UHGV virus genome: UHGV-0090257
Source of the DNA: a virus
Length of the DNA stretch: 36,853 nt
Reading direction: 5' to 3' (one strand)
The translations under genes were made by a program, and so were the position numbers. How positions within the stretch are numbered: the first letter of the stretch is position 1; the number at the start of each line of letters is the position of its first letter. The notes beneath the pieces are model-generated. The model made no database searches. It was not told where the DNA came from and saw only the letters and a list, made by a program, of their open reading frames with translations. This document shows, piece by piece, positions 86-36,853 of the stretch.

Positions 86-1747
86 TTACCATCCTATAAT
101 GACATCAACACTGCCAACATCAACAGGTGATGAGCTAGTGTTTTGGAATGTAACACGAATCATGTCGTCTGATATTGCCAATACATCAGTTATAACCCCT
201 ATTGGCAGATCTCCTAACACCGTCATATTGATTGGAAGTTCATTTTCTATTTTATATCCAGTAGCTACCCTCTGAATTGAAAATCTAGAGTTTGGATTAA
301 TTGAACCAACATTAATTGTTGATTTAATTTTTTTCCCAGAAAACACGATATCATTGAAATCAACATGAGAGTTATTTATTAGCGAATCGGCAATAGAACC
401 TGAAAAATTGCTATTTATACCTACCTGTCTTAAAACTGAGTGTTTTTCAACCCTTACCCCATAATCCACTTTAGCTAAAGAGGCGTCGATATTATTTATT
501 GCGACAACAGCACCATCGACGCAGTTTATCGCATATTTTGCGCTCCCTAGCATAACAATATTTCTTAATGATAAATATGAGGAAAATTGGCTGGTAGCAA
601 ATGCTGAACCTTCACTTCCAACCATATAACAATCAGATATCTCTACAGATGATGAATAACGAGCCGCTACGCAAGACTGAGTTTTCGGTTTTATAATTGA
701 CAATTCTTTTATATAGCAAGATGAAGCATGCTCAACCTTAATTGAGTCTTCATTTGAATTGTATGATGAAAATGAAAAACCTTTCACGCTAGCTGCGTAA
801 ATACATTCCAGCGAAATATTTGCGTTAGTAATATGAACTTCATTGATACAAAACTGAGATCCAGAGCCAGAAACAAGAACTCCACAAACAGAGCCTCCAT
901 TTACAATTAAATTGTTTGCATCCCAAACTACGCAACTACCACATTGTGAATCAGGGTAGTATCCACCTCCGATAATGAGTCCGTAATCACCATCTGTTTC
1001 AATAGCAACATTTTTTATGCTGTATATATTTGATCTAAATTGTATTCCTTTTGTTGTTTTTATTATGGAATTTATTGGTTTTGCCACAACCCCGTTAACC
1101 GGGCCTGAAATTATACCATTGTGACTCATATCCAATGTTAAAACATTTCCATCCTTGGAAATTATCATCGCTCCACATGAAATGTCTCTCCTGCCAGAAA
1201 GTATACAATATTTACCAACATGAAAATTATCTGCATTCTGAACAGAAACTTTAAATATACCAGTCAACACATCATAAGAAACATCATATACATTAACAGG
1301 ACTATAATCCACACCCAATATATTCAGAGGAATATTATCAAACTCATCATAATGTGAATAACCATCAGGAATGTGAATATACTGCCCGTATTCTATCTGT
1401 GATCTAAGCTGATCGGGATCGTACTTCAGCACATTAGGAAAATAGAACTGCTGAGCACCGTACGCATCATAAACAGCCATAGAATGGCCATGTACAGTAA
1501 CGAATTTGGCGATCTGTCCGTTATATACCGGGTAACCAGCAGCGTTAATGATGATTGGTTGCGATACAGGAACGTGAGAACAGTCTTCGTTTTCCACATA
1601 AACCTGAATCTGGTTTTCAGGATTTACAGGGTCAGTGTCAATTTTACCGATATAAATTTTGCCATTAGCTACGGCTTTAAAAGAACGAGCCATAGTGAAG
1701 AGTTGCGAAGGCATGCTTACCACAACATTGGCTGTAATGTCTGTCAT
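86..1747 (-). CDS. Tailspike protein: P22-type N-terminal head-binding domain fused to a divergent receptor-binding domain
   Basis: 553 aa ORF; the first ~110 aa ([11 protein letters not shown]...[25 protein letters not shown]...ENED...) match the P22 gp9 head-binding domain as remembered; the remainder is Gly/Ser/Asn/Val-rich with repeated short strands typical of a beta-helix; last gene of the virion module. Confidence 0.85.
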
Positions 1748-3909: not shown

Positions 3910-5204
3910 TAATCACCCCATAGTGAAGAAAAGTTACTGCCAGTAGTAGATTGTCGCCCTGGCATATTCTGCACCGGCTCCTGATAATCAAACTGTTTTT
4001 TAACAGTGCTCAACTTGCTTTCAAGCTGATTTCTAATCTTTCCGATAGAGTCACGAAAAGCCTTTTCACTCATTTTGGGGCTTAGGGCACCAACCGCATC
4101 GGATAATTTTTTACCCTCAGCATCTGAAAGAGCACCCATACCCTTCAGGGACTGCACCATAGGAAGGAATGTTTGAGCTTTAAAGGTGTCGAGCCTTGCT
4201 TCAAAGTTAGCCGCATCAGAGCCAGGAACTGTCGGAAACGCTGAGCGAATTCCTACTGCTTTTGAAAGGCCGGGGCTTTGCTCTATCTCGTTGAGAGAAT
4301 CAAGCGCGGCGCTGAACGTATCAACTGCACCCTGAGCGGCGGCCTGCCTGTCAGCGCGGGCTATGTCAGCCTTTTGCCGAACATCTGCCTGTTTCTGTTT
4401 TAGCTCTTCAAGCTTTAACTGATTGCTTTCTCTGGCTATCTGTCTGTCAAGAGCCTTTTCTTGTAATTCTGCTCTTTGTATTTCGCGGGAAAGAGCAGCA
4501 TTCTGTGCGCTGATGTTCTGTCCACGTATCTGGATGTCCTGACCACGCGCTGTTAGTGCTTCTCCAGCCTGATTGCTGCGGATTGTCTCTGCCAGCCTGC
4601 CTCGGTCAATTTCACGACCAGCCATCTTGTCCTGAACATTGAAGTAATCAATCGGACCAAGAGCAGCCATTCCAAGGTGATCAACAAACTCACCAAATCC
4701 TGAAGGGTTCTGCTGATACATCTGAGCAACGTTATTAGGGTCAACACCGACGCGAGTCAGTTCCTTGGCGTTGTTTTGCAGCCATGATTGCATTGCTTCT
4801 GGAGACGAGGCCGCTAGGCGTGCGCCAGCCGCTAAGGTGCCGATAGAATTACGTTGGTCTTCATCAATGAATCCCATGCCTTTACGAACGGATTCAATCT
4901 GGTCTGGATATTGAGTAGCTAACTGACGCAAAGCACCGCGATCACCAGACGCATAAGCATTAGCGTACGCCTGCTGAAATTCTTTCTGCCGCTGAGCCTG
5001 CTTTTCCTGCTGAAACACCCCTGCAATACCTGAAAGGCCTTGCAAAGCAGTCAGCCCAACATTGTTAGCGCCTGAACGCTCAATATCATTGTTCTGCCTG
5101 ATAAGCTGAAGCGTATTGCCGATGTCATTTACGCTCGGAGCGTTTGAGTTGACGCCGCCGATACCAGCCAACAATCCGCCATTTGATCCTTGCCAAGTAG
5201 CCAT
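3909..5204 (-). CDS. Ejection protein, P22 gp20-like
   Basis: 431 aa ORF; synteny gp7-gp20-gp16; start overlaps the upstream stop. Confidence 0.75.
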   Translation of the reverse strand: MATWQGSNGGLLAGIGGVNSNAPSVNDIGNTLQLIRQNNDIERSGANNVGLTALQGLSGIAGVFQQEKQAQRQKEFQQAYANAYASGDRGALRQLATQYPDQIESVRKGMGFIDEDQRNSIGTLAAGARLAASSPEAMQSWLQNNAKELTRVGVDPNNVAQMYQQNPSGFGEFVDHLGMAALGPIDYFNVQDKMAGREIDRGRLAETIRSNQAGEALTARGQDIQIRGQNISAQNAALSREIQRAELQEKALDRQIARESNQLKLEELKQKQADVRQKADIARADRQAAAQGAVDTFSAALDSLNEIEQSPGLSKAVGIRSAFPTVPGSDAANFEARLDTFKAQTFLPMVQSLKGMGALSDAEGKKLSDAVGALSPKMSEKAFRDSIGKIRNQLESKLSTVKKQFDYQEPVQNMPGRQSTTGSNFSSLWGD

Positions 5205-26472: not shown

Positions 26473-26751
26473 TCAGGCCTCGAAGAATTCGCCGTTCTTC
26501 GGGGCTTTTTCTTTTGTCAGCATTCTTGCTACTTTCTTAGCCAGTTCCGCCAACTCCTCGTCTTCAACACCCCATTCAAGAACAGCCAGAAGCATTCCCA
26601 TTTTTGGGATGAAGCTGTCTTTCCATCGCGAAATTTGCGATTCATTAATCCCTAACGCGTCGGCAACCTTTCGCTGACCACGTACAGCAATTCGATTCAG
26701 GATGTTGCTTGTAATTGCATTCGCTTTCTTGCGAGTACTTGTAAGTTCCAT
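26473..26751 (-). CDS. cII: CII-like lysogeny establishment activator
   Basis: From the internal Met: ...GINESQISRWKDSFIPKMGMLLAVLEWGV... aligns with the lambda CII core (VDKSQISRWKRDWIPKFSMLLAVLEWGV); SD AAGGAAAT upstream; the longer six-frame ORF overlaps nutR. Confidence 0.85.
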   Translation of the reverse strand: MELTSTRKKANAITSNILNRIAVRGQRKVADALGINESQISRWKDSFIPKMGMLLAVLEWGVEDEELAELAKKVARMLTKEKAPKNGEFFEA

Positions 26752-26783
26752 ATGTAAGTATTTCCTTAACAAATAAGAAGTTA

Positions 26784-26801
26784 TGCGCATCAACTTATGC
26801 G
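26784..26801 (-). terminator. Hairpin between nutR and cII (tR1 position)
   Basis: Perfect GCGCAT-aagttg-ATGCGC stem; the downstream sequence is only partly U-rich. Confidence 0.35.
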
Positions 26802-26807
26802 CGTTGT

Positions 26808-26853
26808 ATTCCCGCATTTCGGCGGGAATGAGGACCATGACTGTTAAAGAGCG
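26808..26853 (-). promoter_or_regulatory. nutR (boxA plus boxB)
   Basis: Minus-strand sense boxA CGCTCTTTAACAG and boxB hairpin TTCCCGC-CGAAAT-GCGGGAA, between cro and cII. Confidence 0.7.
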
Positions 26854-27160: not shown

Positions 27161-27877
27161 ATGGAAAATAAAAAATCACTGACGACAGAACAGCTCGAAG
27201 ACGCTAAGCGGCTTAAGGCTTTGTATGAGTCAAAAAAGAAAGAATTGGGAATAACCCAATACTCAATCGCTGATGAACTGGGTATCACCCAAGGAGCGGT
27301 AGGGCATTATCTTAATGGCAGAAACGCGCTAAACGTTGAGGTTGCATCTGGTTTTGCACGACTGTTGCAAGTCTCAATTGCTGATTTTAGCCAGTCAATT
27401 GCTGCCAAGGTTGCAGAACAGGCAGAAAGCCTTAAGAGCGATGCCAACGTAAGGTATGCAGGGGAATACAGAGCAGGAAAGAGGTATCCGGTGTTAAGCA
27501 GTATCCAGGCTGGCTCGTGGTGTGAAGCATGCGAACCATACACCATTAAAGACATAGATGTTTGGCTTGAGTCTGACGCGCATATTCAAGGTAATGCGTT
27601 CTGGCTTAAAGTGGAAGGTGATTCAATGACGGCACCGGTTGGGTTAAGCATTCCAGAGGGAACATTCGTTCTTTTCGATACCGGAAGGGAGGCGATCAAC
27701 GGCAGCTTGGTCATAGCAAAACTTTCTGACTCTAACGAAGCAACATTCAAGAAGCTGATAATCGACGGCGGAAATAAATACCTCAAGGGACTTAATCCTG
27801 CATGGCCTCTCGTGCCAATCAATGGAAACTGCAAGATTATAGGCGTTGCAATTGAGACAAAACTAAGGCTGGTTTGA
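27161..27877 (+). CDS. cI: CI-type prophage repressor (HTH plus S24 LexA-like autopeptidase domain)
   Basis: 238 aa; N-terminal HTH (ITQYSIADELGITQGAVGHYLNG), A-G cleavage site in QAGSW, catalytic Ser in GDSM and Lys in FKKL. Confidence 0.9.
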   Translation: MENKKSLTTEQLEDAKRLKALYESKKKELGITQYSIADELGITQGAVGHYLNGRNALNVEVASGFARLLQVSIADFSQSIAAKVAEQAESLKSDANVRYAGEYRAGKRYPVLSSIQAGSWCEACEPYTIKDIDVWLESDAHIQGNAFWLKVEGDSMTAPVGLSIPEGTFVLFDTGREAINGSLVIAKLSDSNEATFKKLIIDGGNKYLKGLNPAWPLVPINGNCKIIGVAIETKLRLV

Positions 27878-28482: not shown

Positions 28483-28524
28483 GGCTCTTTAACATTGATG
28501 GGATTGTCCCGCCGAAATGCGGGA
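28483..28524 (+). promoter_or_regulatory. nutL (boxA plus boxB)
   Basis: boxA GGCTCTTTAACA followed 12 nt later by hairpin TCCCGC-CGAAAT-GCGGGA, the same boxB core as nutR. Confidence 0.7.
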
Positions 28525-28838: not shown

Positions 28839-29138
28839 ATGACAGTAGTCATTACATATCTGGCTGACGATAACGCCAGAAATCGCCGCAGAGCACGCAG
28901 ACAGGCTCAACGTGAACAGGCAATGCAAGAGCAGCGACTGGCGCGAAAAATTGCGCTAAAGCTCTCTGGTTGCGTCAGAGCAGATAAAGCAGCATCACTC
29001 GGAAGCCTTCGCAGCAAGAAGGCAGAAGAAGTCGAGCGTAAACAGAACCGTATTTACTACCGCAAGCCCCGCAGTGAAATGGGTGTGACATGTGTTGGTC
29101 GCCAGAAAATGAAATTAGGCAGCAAACCACTTATTTGA
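28839..29138 (+). CDS. N: N-type transcription antiterminator
   Basis: 99 aa; N-terminal arginine-rich motif NARNRRRARRQAQREQA; first gene downstream of pL/nutL; SD GGAGGT. Confidence 0.8.
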   Translation: MTVVITYLADDNARNRRRARRQAQREQAMQEQRLARKIALKLSGCVRADKAASLGSLRSKKAEEVERKQNRIYYRKPRSEMGVTCVGRQKMKLGSKPLI

Positions 29139-29146
29139 GGTGATAT

Positions 29147-29338
29147 ATGGAACGTAAATTTGAAATTTGGTTGGATTCCGGCGCAAACATTCATTCTTGC
29201 AAAAAGACAGTTGTAACACTCGGTGATCTTGGCTTATCCGAGAATGAGTGGGATGAAATGGATCGGGACGAAAAAGACGAAAACATGCGTGATGTAGCAT
29301 TTGAAACGCTTGATTGGGGATGGAAGGAAATTAAGTGA
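29147..29338 (+). CDS. Hypothetical protein (N-proximal accessory ORF)
   Basis: 63 aa acidic ORF in an AT-rich segment immediately after N. Confidence 0.5.
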   Translation: MERKFEIWLDSGANIHSCKKTVVTLGDLGLSENEWDEMDRDEKDENMRDVAFETLDWGWKEIK

Positions 29339-29386
29339 TGGCCGCATAGTCGGCCTTTATTTTTGGCATAAACAACAGAGGCCAAC

Positions 29387-29841: not shown

Positions 29842-29934
29842 GCACCTATAGCAGATTTACGAGTCTGCTATGTGAGCAATGTCGCTCGTAACTAAACAGG
29901 AGCCGACTTGTTCTGATTATTGGAAATCTTCTTT

Positions 29935-29961
29935 GCCCTCCAGTGTGAGGGCGATTTTTTA
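29935..29961 (+). terminator. Intrinsic terminator in the early-left operon (tL-like)
   Basis: GCCCTC-cagtgt-GAGGGC followed by GATTTTTTAT. Confidence 0.65.
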
Positions 29962-29980
29962 TCTATGAGGATATGAATAG

Positions 29981-30349: not shown

Positions 30350-30424
30350 GTGCGGCTTTACCGCATACCAATAACGCTTCATTCGAGGCGTTTTCGTTAT
30401 GCAATCAAATATAAGGAGTTACCC

Positions 30425-33239: not shown

Positions 33240-33712
33240 AACAAATGTCACTAATTGAGATGGATGGATTTCTGAAAGGTAAATGCATCCCAAGTGATTT
33301 AAAGGTTAACGAAACAAACGCTGAATATCTGGTGCGTAAGTTCGGTGAGCTTGAATCAAAACTGGAAACGGCGTTGCGGGAGTGTCGTTCTGCTGGAATC
33401 ACGATTGATAACCTTGAGGCTAAATGCGCGAAGATGGCTGCAGAAAATACCTCGCTTAAGCAATCTGAGAAGGAATTTAATGACTTTTGTCGTGAGGAGT
33501 TTAGCGAATGGGAAGATGATGTTACTGAAACCACAGCCACCGATGCTTTCCTGGCTGAAGTACGGGCGCAGGGCGTGGATATGGCTCGTAACGCGATGAT
33601 TGATTTTGTCGATGGTGAAGTTGGGCCAAACAAGAACGTTCCGGGGCTGATTAGAGGCGCAGAGATATGCGTAAGTATTGCTGAACAGCTTCGCAAAGGA
33701 GGCAACCAGTGA
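33236..33712 (+). CDS. Hypothetical protein
   Basis: 158 aa acidic ORF with coiled-coil character. Confidence 0.55.
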
Positions 33713-33942
33713 CTGTATGTCTTATTGATAAACGTCGACGTGGACAACAAATACCATCTGTTGAAATGCCGAATCACACATGGTTTTGCGTACTTGATAT
33801 CGATGGTATGGATACGTTGATCGACACTCGTCATTACTGCGATACCGCAACAGCTACTCCTGCAAAAGCAAAGAAAATGGCTGCTCTGATAGAAAACTGG
33901 ACTCCACCTGATGGTTGGTGCAATGGGAATGATCGAGATTAG
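33709..33942 (+). CDS. Hypothetical protein
   Basis: 77 aa ORF, overlaps the previous stop. Confidence 0.5.
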   Translation: MTVCLIDKRRRGQQIPSVEMPNHTWFCVLDIDGMDTLIDTRHYCDTATATPAKAKKMAALIENWTPPDGWCNGNDRD

Positions 33943-34009
33943 CACGAAAAAATGAAGGGCTATATCTGCGATTTTTTACGTAAATGCAACGGCTTCAGGG
34001 TGATGTGAC

Positions 34010-34693
34010 ATGAGCAAGATTGACTATCAGGCACTGCGTGAAAAGGCAGAGAAAGCAACGTGTGGTGTGTGGTCGCTCGAATATGGAGAGGGCCGATTTG
34101 ATGGTGATGATGCACTAATTCATCGCGAGGCTGCTGGGTATATTCCCATTTGCAGAATTGAAGGAGCGCATCCAGAAAGCGGTTTCGATGAAGATTTCCA
34201 AATGGAACAGCAGGCCAATGCTGAATTCATCGCCGCAGCCAGTCCAGCTACCGTGCTGGCGCTGCTGGATGAACGGGAAAGAAACCAGCAATACATCAAA
34301 CGCCGCGACCAGGAGAACGAGGATATTGCGCTAACAGTAGGGAAACTGCGTGTTGAGCTTGAAACAGCAAAATCAAAACTCAACGAGCAGCGTGAGTATT
34401 ACGAAGGTGTTATCTCGGATGGGAGTAAGCGTATTGCTAAACTGGAAAGCAACGAAGTCCGTGAAAACGGAAACCAGTTTCTTGTTGTTCGCCATCCTGG
34501 GAAGACTCCTGTTATCAAGCACTGCACTGGTGACCTGGAAGAGTTTCTGCGGCAGTTAATCGAACAAGACCCGTTAGTAACTATCGACATCATTACGCAT
34601 CGCTATTACGGGGTTGGAGGTCAATGGGTTCAGGATGCAGGTGAGTATCTGCATATGATGTCTGACGCTGGCATTCGCATCAAAGGAGAGTGA
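34010..34693 (+). CDS. Ead/Ea22-like protein
   Basis: 227 aa; the segment ANAEFIAAASPATVLALLDERERNQ is the motif remembered from the Ead/Ea22 family of lambdoid early-left proteins. Confidence 0.6.
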   Translation: MSKIDYQALREKAEKATCGVWSLEYGEGRFDGDDALIHREAAGYIPICRIEGAHPESGFDEDFQMEQQANAEFIAAASPATVLALLDERERNQQYIKRRDQENEDIALTVGKLRVELETAKSKLNEQREYYEGVISDGSKRIAKLESNEVRENGNQFLVVRHPGKTPVIKHCTGDLEEFLRQLIEQDPLVTIDIITHRYYGVGGQWVQDAGEYLHMMSDAGIRIKGE

Positions 34694-34884
34694 GATCGGT
34701 TTTGTAAAAGATAACGCTTGTGAAAATGCTGAATTTCGCGTCGTCTTCACAGCGATGCCAGAGTCTGTAGTGTCAGATGATGACCGTACTCAAACATCGG
34801 GTTGAGTATTATCTTACTGTTTCTTTACATAAACATTGCTGATACCGTTTAGCTGAAACGGCATACATTGCAAGGAGTTTATAA

Positions 34885-35166
34885 ATGCGTATCAATGAGT
34901 TAGAGTCTGAGCAAAAAGATTGGGCGTTATCAATGTTGTGCAGATCCGGTGTCTTGTCTCCATGCAGACATCACGAAGGTGTTTATGTAGATGAAGGTAT
35001 AGATATAGAGTCGGCATACAAATATTCCATGAAGGTTTATAAGTCTAATGAAGACAAATCCCCATTCTGCAATGTGCGAGAAATGACTGATACCGTGCAA
35101 AATTATTATCACGAGTACGGTGGAAACGATACTTGCCCTCTCTGTACAAAACATATAGATGATTAA
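34885..35166 (+). CDS. Hypothetical Cys/His-containing small protein
   Basis: 93 aa; SD AAGGAG; contains C...SPC.HH...C...CPLC, which could be a small zinc-binding fold. Confidence 0.5.
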   Translation: MRINELESEQKDWALSMLCRSGVLSPCRHHEGVYVDEGIDIESAYKYSMKVYKSNEDKSPFCNVREMTDTVQNYYHEYGGNDTCPLCTKHIDD

Positions 35167-35189
35167 ACCAAATATTACATAACAATCCT

Positions 35190-35248
35190 CGCACTCGCGG
35201 GGATTTCTTTTATCTGAACTCGCTACGGCGAGTTTTGTTTTATGGAGA
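35190..35248 (+). terminator. Tandem intrinsic terminators
   Basis: ATCCTCGC-actc-GCGGGGAT followed by TTCTTTTAT, then AACTCGC-tacg-GCGAGTT followed by TTGTTTTAT. Confidence 0.6.
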
Positions 35249-35254
35249 TGATAA

Positions 35255-35422
35255 ATGCACTTCCGAGTCACAGGTGAATGGAATGGAGAACCATTCAACA
35301 GAGTTATCGAAGCAGAGGACATCAACGACTGCTATGCCCACTGGATGCTGTGGGCGCAGATAGCACATGCAGACGTAACCAATATTCGAATTGAAGAACT
35401 GAAAGAACACCAAGCCGCCTGA
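35255..35422 (+). CDS. Small hypothetical protein between terminators
   Basis: 55 aa ORF read by hand (MHFRVTGEWNGEPFNRVIEAEDINDCYAHWMLWAQIAHADVTNIRIEELKEHQAA). Confidence 0.35.
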   Translation: MHFRVTGEWNGEPFNRVIEAEDINDCYAHWMLWAQIAHADVTNIRIEELKEHQAA

Positions 35423-35436
35423 TGGCGGTTTCTTTT
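35411..35436 (+). terminator. Intrinsic terminator upstream of xis
   Basis: GCCGCC-tgat-GGCGG followed by TTTCTTTTT. Confidence 0.55.
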
Positions 35437-35452
35437 TGCCTGGAGAATTAAG

Positions 35453-35644
35453 ATGACCGATACCAGCCTGATTCCTGAGAAAGAAGTGATGAACAAGCTC
35501 GGTGTTTCATCACGTCAGACAATCTGGAACTATACCAAACGGCACGGATTTCCGAAGCCAGTCAGAACCCACCCCAAATCATACCTTCGTGAAGCTGTTG
35601 AAGGGTGGATTCTTAACGGTGGCGTTAATCAGAAATGCTCCTGA
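35453..35644 (+). CDS. xis: AlpA-family excisionase / transcriptional regulator
   Basis: 63 aa; LGVSSRQTIWNYTKRHGFPKPV matches the AlpA-type HTH pattern (...STIYRLIKEGKFPKPV) as remembered; adjacent and convergent to the integrase. Confidence 0.7.
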   Translation: MTDTSLIPEKEVMNKLGVSSRQTIWNYTKRHGFPKPVRTHPKSYLREAVEGWILNGGVNQKCS

Positions 35645-36803
35645 TGTGCCAGAACAATTTATCAGCGTGAAGCTCATACGCTTTGCGCTGAGCCTCTATC
35701 CAATCGTGTTTATTGTATACGGACATTATCCCGCCAAGTTCATGACCGAGCATTCGCTCAGTAACATGAGGCTCGACATTCATCTCGGACAGACGTGTAA
35801 CAAGCGTTCTTCTGAAATCATGTGTTCGCCAGTAACCTATATCCATCCCTCCCCTTATTCTATTTACGAATCGGTTGGCTGCAGCGATGCTGATCGGTTT
35901 GTTTATGTCTTCTCCAGGGAAAAGAACATCATTGTACGTTGTCATGGCCTTATCGAGGAAAGGCTTAATTTGTTCGAAGATTGGACGGCGGATAACATTA
36001 CCCATCTTGCTATGCTCTTTCGGTACGGTCCATACGTTGTCCAGCAGGTCAAATTCTGTCTTTGTTGCCAGCCTAAGCTCTGAGAGCCTCGCCCCCCACA
36101 GCATAAGCATCTGATGAAGTAGCTTATTTGACGTAGACGCACGGCTTCTTTCAATAGCAAGCCAAATCTTAGCCAGTTCGTGATACGACAGTACCCGATC
36201 CCCTACCTCAGCGCGGGAGCCGAAGTCCCTTGGTTGGATGCTCATAATTGCGCAACTATCTATCAACTGACGCCGCATGCACCAACTTATTGCTGATCTT
36301 AGTTGACTTAGCACCTGCCTTGCTCGGCGTGGATTATCTCTTTCTTCTTCGGTAAGCAGGTCAACCCATTGCTTAACCGTGATAGAAGATGCCGGACGAT
36401 TAGGAAAGGCGTCATGCATGCGCTTCATAACCGTTGATCGGTAAAGTGCCTGGGTCTTTTCTCTGAGAGTTGTAGAGACGTAGTTGTCGAACCAGTAGTC
36501 GAGACACTGGGCGACCGTCATGGAGTTCTCCACCTTCTCTTCAAAATAGGTGCGTGGATCCGTTCCTGAGAAATAGAGCTTTCGCAAGTCAGCAGTGATC
36601 TGTCTGGCATCCTTCAAAGACAGGGATGGGTATCGACCAAGCCCAAGTCGATTAGGCTTGCCATGCCAGCGATAGCGGTACTGGAACTGGATGACCCCCT
36701 TCGGTGAAATTCGTACGCTGAGGCCATCGGCATCAGCCACTTCTTGTGGGCCCGAATATGGTTTACCATAAATAGTACGCAGTTTTGTGTCGCTTATAGC
36801 CAT
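35625..36803 (-). CDS. int: Tyrosine recombinase (P4-type phage integrase)
   Basis: 392 aa; N-terminal arm-binding type domain (GLSVRISPKGVIQFQYRYRWHGK), catalytic-region motifs HDFRRT and MLGH, and a tyrosine in SVYNKHD. Confidence 0.9.
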   Translation of the reverse strand: MAISDTKLRTIYGKPYSGPQEVADADGLSVRISPKGVIQFQYRYRWHGKPNRLGLGRYPSLSLKDARQITADLRKLYFSGTDPRTYFEEKVENSMTVAQCLDYWFDNYVSTTLREKTQALYRSTVMKRMHDAFPNRPASSITVKQWVDLLTEEERDNPRRARQVLSQLRSAISWCMRRQLIDSCAIMSIQPRDFGSRAEVGDRVLSYHELAKIWLAIERSRASTSNKLLHQMLMLWGARLSELRLATKTEFDLLDNVWTVPKEHSKMGNVIRRPIFEQIKPFLDKAMTTYNDVLFPGEDINKPISIAAANRFVNRIRGGMDIGYWRTHDFRRTLVTRLSEMNVEPHVTERMLGHELGGIMSVYNKHDWIEAQRKAYELHADKLFWHIRSISD

Positions 36804-36853
36804 AAATAATATTTGGTACGCTCAGAAATAATAGTTTGGTACACATCTGGTAC
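36804..36853. repeat. Direct repeats upstream of int (candidate integrase arm sites / att-proximal)
   Basis: AAATAATATTTGGTAC (36804..36819) and AAATAATAGTTTGGTAC (36826..36842), plus CTGGTAC at the window end. Confidence 0.4.

Follow-up and report, generated by a model that had tools for sequence, protein, structure and literature searches.

The DNA analysed here, called the window throughout, is a stretch of 36,853 nucleotides from virus genome UHGV-0090257. Its backbone is that of an HK620/Sf6-like podophage with a lambdoid early region, in which the pL operon runs from left to right, beginning with an N-like gene and ending with xis, the last gene on the plus strand. Three hairpins and a small ORF lie between ea8.5 and xis, and beyond xis the integrase gene is read from the opposite strand (Table 1). 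The hairpins are designated t3, t4 and t5 after their equivalents in phage lambda. The first of them begins 17 nt past the ea8.5 stop; the Shine–Dalgarno sequence of orf55 (GGAG at 35244-35247) is found directly 3′ of the t4 hairpin, the orf55 stop codon TGA (35420-35422) falls inside the t5 loop, and the ATG of xis is preceded by GGAG, 8 nt upstream.

A preliminary description of this DNA had reported three intrinsic terminators and a 55-aa ORF upstream of an AlpA-type xis, together with a 20-bp convergent overlap of the xis and int 3′ ends. This geometry is borne out. The terminator scan places all three hairpins upstream of xis on the plus strand, within a few bases of the positions first proposed (35190..35248 and 35411..35436); the ORF table holds the ORF between the hairpins at 35255-35422, and the overlap of xis (plus strand) with int (minus strand) at 35625-35644 follows from the ORF coordinates. 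The remark that this layout is unlike that of lambda is also correct, since xis and int are co-oriented in lambda and convergent here.

The integrase carries the Pfam domains Arm-DNA-bind_3 (8.3e-18) and Phage_integrase (1.4e-16). Upstream of its gene, the motif TGGTACRC is present in two complete copies and a third that is cut by the end of the window. In phage HK140, five copies of this motif, against 0.3 expected by chance, flank the annotated attP core. Only 50 bp 5′ of the int start lie inside the window, and the int promoter is mostly beyond its end.

Table 1. Features of the early-left end, by position in the window
Feature	Position	Strand	Evidence or remarks
cII gene	26473-26838		
cI-type repressor gene	27161-27877		
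nutL-like site	28484..28523	+	boxA-like GCTCTTTAACA (28484-28494), then hairpin CCCGC/GCGGG (28508-28523)
N-like transcription antiterminator gene	28839..29138	+	PHROG 271 'anti-termination protein N-like', E 2.3e-36
ea8.5 homologue, 93 aa	34885..35166	+	Pfam PF20735 Lambda_ea8_5, E 1.1e-48; near-identity to lambda ea8.5
t3-equivalent terminator-like hairpin	35184..35213	+	9-pair stem 35184-35205, T tract after; tail TCTTTTATCT (terminator scan)
t4-equivalent terminator-like hairpin, in tandem with t3	35216..35245	+	8-pair stem 35216-35235, T tract after; tail TGTTTTATGG (terminator scan)
orf55 homologue, 55 aa (lambda lambdap35)	35255..35422	+	PHROG 676, E 1.4e-39, full length
t5-equivalent terminator-like hairpin, third of the series	35412..35438	+	8-pair stem 35412-35431, T tract after; tail CTTTTTGCCT (terminator scan)
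xis, 63 aa, winged-helix/AlpA-like recombination directionality factor	35453..35644	+	47% identity to phi24B Xis
xis/int 3′-end overlap, 20 bp	35625..35644		ORF coordinates
int, 392 aa, P4-type tyrosine integrase, convergent with xis	35625..36803	-	Pfam domains
TGGTACRC direct repeats 5′ of the int start	36814..36853	+	candidate Int arm-type sites, int promoter region

The lambda segment

The part of the region to the left of xis closely follows phage lambda. Window positions 34253-35442 are 98.4% identical to lambda 30287-29098 over 1190 bp (blastn), and direct alignment shows that 34860-35440 is near base-for-base lambda. The two genomes have in common the gene order ea22, ea8.5, t3, t4, orf55, t5 and xis, the 88-bp spacer between ea8.5 and orf55, and the location of hairpins directly upstream of xis. 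The orf55 ORF aligns to lambda 29118-29285, and its counterpart in HK140, gp31, carries an annotation of similarity to lambdap35; Orf55 of lambda is treated by Donaldson 2021 (PMC8614690).

In lambda, t3, t4 and t5 are predictions of the ARNold software (Bloch 2014, PMC4195576), and the window hairpins match the sequences given in Table 4 of that work, single-base differences aside. The stem and loop of t3 are identical to those of lambda t3, t4 has one A-to-G change in lambda that turns a U–A pair into U–G, and the T tracts of t3 and t5 each differ by one base. An assignment of the tandem hairpins to lambda tL3 was considered and rejected, since tL3 is the t1 of Bloch 2014, which has a different sequence and lies further upstream (PMC4195576). 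Homology to lambda ends at 35442, shortly past the T tract of t5. What follows in lambda is the TTGC-N6-TTGC motif of PI and the lambda xis-int genes, whereas the window continues with an unrelated xis and an inverted int. Judged from these alignments, the left module, up to 35442, is a near-exact copy of the lambda ea22 (3′ part)-ea8.5-orf55 segment, including its three predicted terminators.

The excision cassette and its relatives

From t5 onward, the window has 98-99% DNA identity to phages HK140, mEp234 and Sf101, to Stx phages 2851 and 1717 and to many E. coli prophages, and its Xis is 100% identical to proteins of HK140, mEp234 and Stx2a_WGPS8. HK140 also carries t3-t4-orf55. In the chromosome of E. 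coli 1008S13, the full arrangement from ea8.5 to int is colinear with that of the window, and int adjoins sbcB. What differs within the HK140/mEp234/Sf101 group and the sbcB prophages is the set of upstream accessory genes, which vary from phage to phage. By sequence, the right module is a recombination cassette of the HK140/mEp234/Sf101 type, inserting by sbcB, and a homologue of the phi24B cassette, with an Int 57% identical to phi24B Int over its full length.

The label 'AlpA-type' attached to xis in the preliminary description holds by name and falls short by profile. RefSeq places the HK140 protein, which is identical to the window Xis, in the AlpA family, and Xis matches PHROG 66 ('excisionase and transcriptional regulator') with an E of 1.9e-8. 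However, its score against Pfam PF05930 (AlpA) is 17.8 bits (E 0.0032), under the cut-off of 21, and an NCBIfam search of Xis returned no match. Xis is AlpA-like, but it is not a certified member of PF05930 by the score threshold.

More distant homologues of Xis, with 42-62% identity, are found in phage 86, in many Stx phages (all with the same 46.6%-identical Xis), in SEN34 and in Klebsiella and Hafnia phages, and every such match sits under both a small ORF and an integrase. According to annotated coordinates, the convergent 3′ overlap measures 17 bp in phage 86 and 20 bp in SEN34. In phi24B, int (236-1405) and xis (1389-1571, opposite strand) overlap by 17 bp.

The best-described relative is the phi24B module. 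Its int is inverted relative to lambda and is driven by a promoter of its own that CI does not control, and the small ORF beside the 3′ end of int encodes a functional excisionase, for which continued pL/CI control was argued from its orientation (Fogg 2011, PMC3064807). The window has a homologous inverted P4-type int and an adjacent xis in the pL orientation with overlapping 3′ ends; as in phi24B and phage 86, xis is the last pL gene, int faces attP and the 3′ ends converge and overlap. The phi24B cassette nevertheless belongs to another lineage of the family with another attachment site, the window type being the one that adjoins sbcB. It also lacks orf55 and has none of t3, t4 and t5 before its xis, where a single unrelated hairpin was predicted (Bloch 2014, PMC4195576).

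A second published system is the IntS-TorI module of KplE1, HK620 and Sf6, which resembles the window cassette in the separate transcription of int and directionality factor (Panis 2010, PMC2951348). In the paradigm put forward there, the promoter of int adjoins att, which allows Int to repress its own gene and leaves the control of excision to the directionality factor alone (PMC2951348). The two modules are without sequence relationship. In Sf6, torI, attP and int follow one another on one strand, whereas in the window the genes are convergent and overlapping and attP is beyond the 5′ end of int. The KplE1/Sf6 module was rejected as a model for the layout, because its geometry, with attP between co-oriented genes, is not that of the window.

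Hairpin structure and distribution

The terminator scan of 33500-36853 returned eight sites, against 2.9 ± 1.6 in shuffled sequences. The folding energies of t3, t4 and t5 are -13.1 kcal/mol (z -6.5), -11.9 kcal/mol (z -3.3) and -14.5 kcal/mol (z -1.9), respectively, the last of these folds being only marginally better than shuffles. In all three, a GC-rich stem is joined to a T tract on the plus strand alone, the minus-strand tails being poor; this is the make-up of an intrinsic terminator, in which a GC-rich stem-loop on the transcribed strand leads directly into a U-rich tract. In the window, the T tract of t5 is interrupted (TTTCTTTTT). Annotation in related phages agrees with this reading, the t5 element being labelled a rho-independent terminator in the HK140 record and the t3-t4 block a terminator in that of MG40. 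The sole Rfam match, Leu_leader on the minus strand, scored 20.8 bits against a threshold of 50 and was discarded as noise caused by the hairpins.

Variants of t3-t4 and of t5 were collected by pattern scans of IMG/VR. Among 37 distinct t3-t4 variants, stem cells are paired in 97% of cases, versus 38-56% with slid 3′ partners, and the T tracts show almost no variation. The commonest polymorphism is the U–A/U–G alternative in t4 (20 versus 17 variants), for which pairing is kept only in the plus-strand RNA. In this set of 37 variants no pair is changed on both sides and no covariation measure exceeds shuffles; the variants are about 97% alike, and covariation is therefore not to be expected. 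A single T–A to A–T swap was seen in one contig, too little to count. Stem mismatches occur in some relatives, such as GACGCC in t5 and a C-to-A change at the closing pair of t3. The hairpins are supported as structures by thermodynamics, by T tracts confined to one strand and by conservation, the compared sequences being about 97% identical. Going by these features, the xis-bearing strand seems to carry three intrinsic terminators.

The same hairpins are widespread outside this layout. A sensitive search found pieces of 35150-35460 in 371 phage records, and the hairpins are where these pieces break off. P22-like Salmonella phages, including MG40, BTP1, ST160 and others, have the t3-t4 block (35179-35247) alone. 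Many Stx2a phages have only the t3 hairpin, as does ES18, in which it stands directly before a P22-type xis. The t5 block (35375-35440, including the last dozen orf55 codons) is found in Min27, co-matching 933W-like Stx phages, HK633 and ST64T, in the last of which no long ORF precedes it. Edges of homology between otherwise unrelated phages fall exactly on these blocks, for example at 35179 (start of t3), 35247 (past t4), 35375 and 35438-35442 (end of t5); in HK140, the match to the window begins where the t3 block does, at 35179.

The neighbours of the blocks vary from phage to phage. The t3-t4 block ends at the Shine–Dalgarno GGAG, after which come at least four different ORF starts. The module 3′ of t5 was determined in 119 contigs with enough downstream sequence: it is a lambda-type xis-int in 66, another xis-like ORF whose integrase is distant and co-oriented in 26, a P22-type xis in 10, an AlpA-like xis with reversed int as in the window in eight, a 933W-type xis-int in three and of other kinds in the remaining six. 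Hence, t5 stands before at least six kinds of excision module. The terminators are a generic fixture of the border between accessory 'ea' genes and excision module in lambdoid phages, and the hairpin blocks are portable junction sequences tied to no one xis/int arrangement.

This distribution raises the question of whether the blocks are kept chiefly as boundary or linker sequences, short patches of homology that serve module exchange, with termination incidental. The exact coincidence of homology edges with the blocks and the variety of ORFs and excision modules that follow them speak for this view, and in the Sf6 record, 'boundary sequences' of a similar kind are annotated in this part of the genome. 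However, it leaves unexplained why a GC-rich hairpin and a T tract are combined on the transcribed strand only, and why stem pairing is kept at 97%. As the principal role of the hairpins, a boundary function is possible but rather unlikely. Junctions would also gather at short functionally conserved elements, so that the boundary and terminator readings are not mutually exclusive.

Transcription across the end of the pL operon

The early-left region of the window is organized as in N-antiterminated lambdoid phages, with an N homologue, a boxA-like sequence and a 5-bp hairpin. The segment 28484..28523 is taken here as the nut site by its likeness to the lambdoid boxA consensus; the stretch folds with the hairpin, yet its stability does not exceed that of shuffles (z -1.3). 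Further terminator-like sites on the plus strand occur earlier in the operon, at 29340, 29933 and 30373. A scan of 33500-36853 for sigma-70-like promoters gave none of sufficient quality, hence no internal source of leakage was seen. Having no promoter-like site of its own, xis must be expressed by readthrough of N-modified polymerase from pL, the route by which lambda xis and int are expressed (Panis 2010, PMC2951348). For lambda, Bloch 2014 (PMC4195576) reports at second hand that ea8.5 is expressed in lysogens without induction, which provides a concrete source of leakage that the terminators would stop.

The experimentally demonstrated terminators tL1, tL2 and tL3 of the lambda pL operon offer a parallel. 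They too are intrinsic terminators within the operon, and only N-modified polymerase reaches the genes distal to them, xis included. By comparison, t3-t5 are predictions only, and the sequence of tL3 differs from theirs.

From these features we infer, with a probability of about 75%, that the region is the far end of an N-antiterminated pL operon, made up of a lambda segment and an inverted-int cassette, and that the hairpins stop unmodified polymerase there. Any polymerase left unmodified by N at nutL, including one that starts inside the 'ea' genes in a lysogen, would halt at t3, t4 or t5. The lysogen would then contain no Xis and, by analogy with phi24B, a low and constitutive amount of Int read from a promoter of its own beside attP, and the prophage would stay in place. 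Upon induction, N-modified polymerase from pL would pass all three hairpins, Xis would be made and would direct the pre-existing Int towards prophage excision, while the same pL transcript would run on as antisense RNA over int. The hairpin blocks would, in addition, mark joints at which lambdoid phages exchanged accessory genes and excision modules. The most likely role of the hairpins would be to stop transcription not modified by N at the end of pL and to keep xis silent in lysogens. The proposal made in the preliminary description, that xis is insulated from early-left readthrough, is thereby narrowed: with an N-type gene and a nutL-like site upstream it is plausible for unmodified transcripts, but xis itself needs N-modified readthrough from pL, so that only the unmodified transcripts would stop.

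Transcription past xis is a separate issue. The sole plus-strand site that the scan found beyond xis, at 35946, is weak, and with no good plus-strand terminator after xis, transcripts that pass it must run on antisense into int. In addition, an overlap of 17-20 bp between the 3′ ends leaves no room for a terminator between the two genes, so that their full-length transcripts must overlap. Antisense coupling of int and xis is, on this arrangement, a reasonable idea. An extended version, decidedly unlikely, would make pL readthrough over int a counterpart of sib retroregulation in lambda: in the lytic programme, convergent transcription or RNase III cleavage of the sense-antisense duplex would stop Int synthesis, and ribosomes completing orf55 might further tune the readthrough of t5 into xis. 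With the stop codon of orf55 inside the loop of t5, a terminating ribosome would cover the hairpin.

Read along the lines of the preliminary description, the terminators and the convergent xis/int pair would form one purpose-built unit in which xis is shielded and the overlap couples the two genes by antisense. The geometry is real, and the overlap is kept at 17-20 bp in cassettes whose Xis proteins are only 47-62% identical. However, the terminators belong to the lambda segment: in lambda itself, orf55 and these three hairpins precede a co-oriented xis-int, and they are not specific to the convergent layout. Conversely, a canonical terminator before xis is absent from the diverged convergent cassettes of phage 86, SEN34 and the Klebsiella phage, that of phage 86 having only a hairpin without a T tract at this place. 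The overlap, moreover, has no special RNA structure on either strand (z +0.25 and -0.12), and the words 'overlap' and 'antisense' do not appear in the phi24B paper (PMC3064807). A purpose-built unit is accordingly improbable. Six kinds of module after t5, together with the lack of a terminator before diverged convergent xis genes, identify terminators and layout as independent; in terms of sequence, they are separate modules joined by recombination.

Stable 3′ stem-loops protect bacterial mRNAs, and the hairpins might be supposed to serve chiefly as 3′ stabilisers or processing ends that guard the ea8.5 and orf55 messages against 3′ exonucleases. Their location directly after an ORF, close to the ea8.5 stop in one case and over the orf55 stop in the other, would fit such a function. 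However, stabilisation has no need of the conserved T tracts, which are characteristic of terminators, a tandem pair after one gene suits fail-safe termination better, and the t5 block of ST64T follows no long ORF, all of which makes stabilisation a poor candidate for the main role. It is similarly doubtful that t5 is bidirectional and also ends the int transcript after an antisense run through xis: its complement was scored twice on the minus strand (35428-35415 and 35424-35408), an A-rich run precedes the hairpin on that strand and between t5 and the int stop the minus strand offers no further convincing terminator, but the minus-strand tail CTTGGTGTTC is poor, the minus-strand fold is no better than shuffles (z -0.98) and an equivalent element is absent from the diverged cassettes.

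The inverted-int layout was already published for phi24B (PMC3064807), and the hairpins were already predicted in lambda (PMC4195576). Nothing here is new, all elements being already known or predicted, and the finding is real but ordinary. The case nevertheless illustrates how a recombination joint in a lambdoid phage can coincide exactly with a terminator, and few short sequences at the border between accessory genes and excision module are as widely shared as the lambda t3-t5 hairpins. Termination data for t3-t5 would hold alike for lambda, many Stx phages and P22-like phages, and would bear on how tightly Xis is silenced in lysogens with a constitutive integrase.

The orf55 stop codon and neighbouring regulatory sequences

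The loop of the t5 hairpin (35412-35431), the predicted terminator that spans the end of orf55, a 55-aa homologue of the lambda gene, ahead of the excisionase gene xis, begins with the orf55 stop codon TGA, which supplies the first three bases of the loop (35420-35422). A ribosome terminating on orf55 would cover the hairpin, so that translation of orf55 might modulate readthrough into xis.

Further intrinsic-terminator-like hairpins are found elsewhere in the window, and the three on the strand of the early-left (pL) operon (Table) probably correspond to tL1 and tL2. A separate hairpin, AAGGCCAAAAGTTTTTTGGCCTT, flanked by A/T runs, occupies the window start (1-45) on the downstream side of a 553-aa ORF (86-1747, minus strand), and looks like a bidirectional terminator.

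At the other end, the TGGTACRC repeats next to int comprise two complete copies and a third truncated by the window end. In HK140, a phage with the same t5-xis-int cassette, five copies surround the annotated attP core (4636-4677 and 4909-4928 of its locus L001), where 0.3 would be expected by chance. The repeats are likely arm-type sites for Int that overlap the promoter of int, an arrangement that would imply autoregulation of int.

Features located in the window and in compared phage loci (own numbering of each locus)
Feature	Sequence	Coordinates	Strand	Remark
Intrinsic-terminator-like hairpin	window	29340-29365	+	pL-operon strand, shortly after N gene
Intrinsic-terminator-like hairpin	window	29933-29964	+	pL-operon strand, shortly after N gene
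Intrinsic-terminator-like hairpin	window	30373-30402	+	pL-operon strand, shortly after N gene
TGGTACRC direct repeats	window	36814-36853		adjoin int start codon, upstream side
168-nt ORF	phage phi345 (L077)	1202-1369		91.9% identity to orf55-t5 stretch
168-nt ORF	phage 86 (L069)	122-289		same length and position as phi345 ORF

Terminator blocks and mosaic joints

The match of the window to lambda ends directly past the t5 T tract (window 35438-35442 versus lambda about 29098-29105 in the alignment). Beyond that tract lambda carries CTTGCGTGTAATTGC, whose TTGC-N6-TTGC motif we take to be the cII site of promoter PI; since the match ends between tract and motif, the recombination joint parts t5 from lambda PI and xis.

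The t5 block of ST64T (L005 1490-1564) and of Min27 (L006 2060-2141) includes the last 12 or so orf55 codons and is preceded by unrelated sequence. In ST64T a stop codon precedes the block, which is therefore not part of any long ORF; the 3′ arm of the hairpin there contains the ATG annotated as the start of eac. In Stx phages of the P27/phi86 type, a 168-nt ORF directly follows the antirepressor gene, and because that of phi345 matches the orf55-t5 stretch, orf55 moves together with t5 to other genome positions.

Among the IMG/VR loci (L080-L263), the t5 block precedes at least six unrelated excision modules, and the block of the two tandem terminators t3 and t4, ending at the Shine-Dalgarno GGAG, precedes at least four different ORFs. 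These short terminator blocks behave as mosaic joints common to lambda-like, Stx and P22-like phages.
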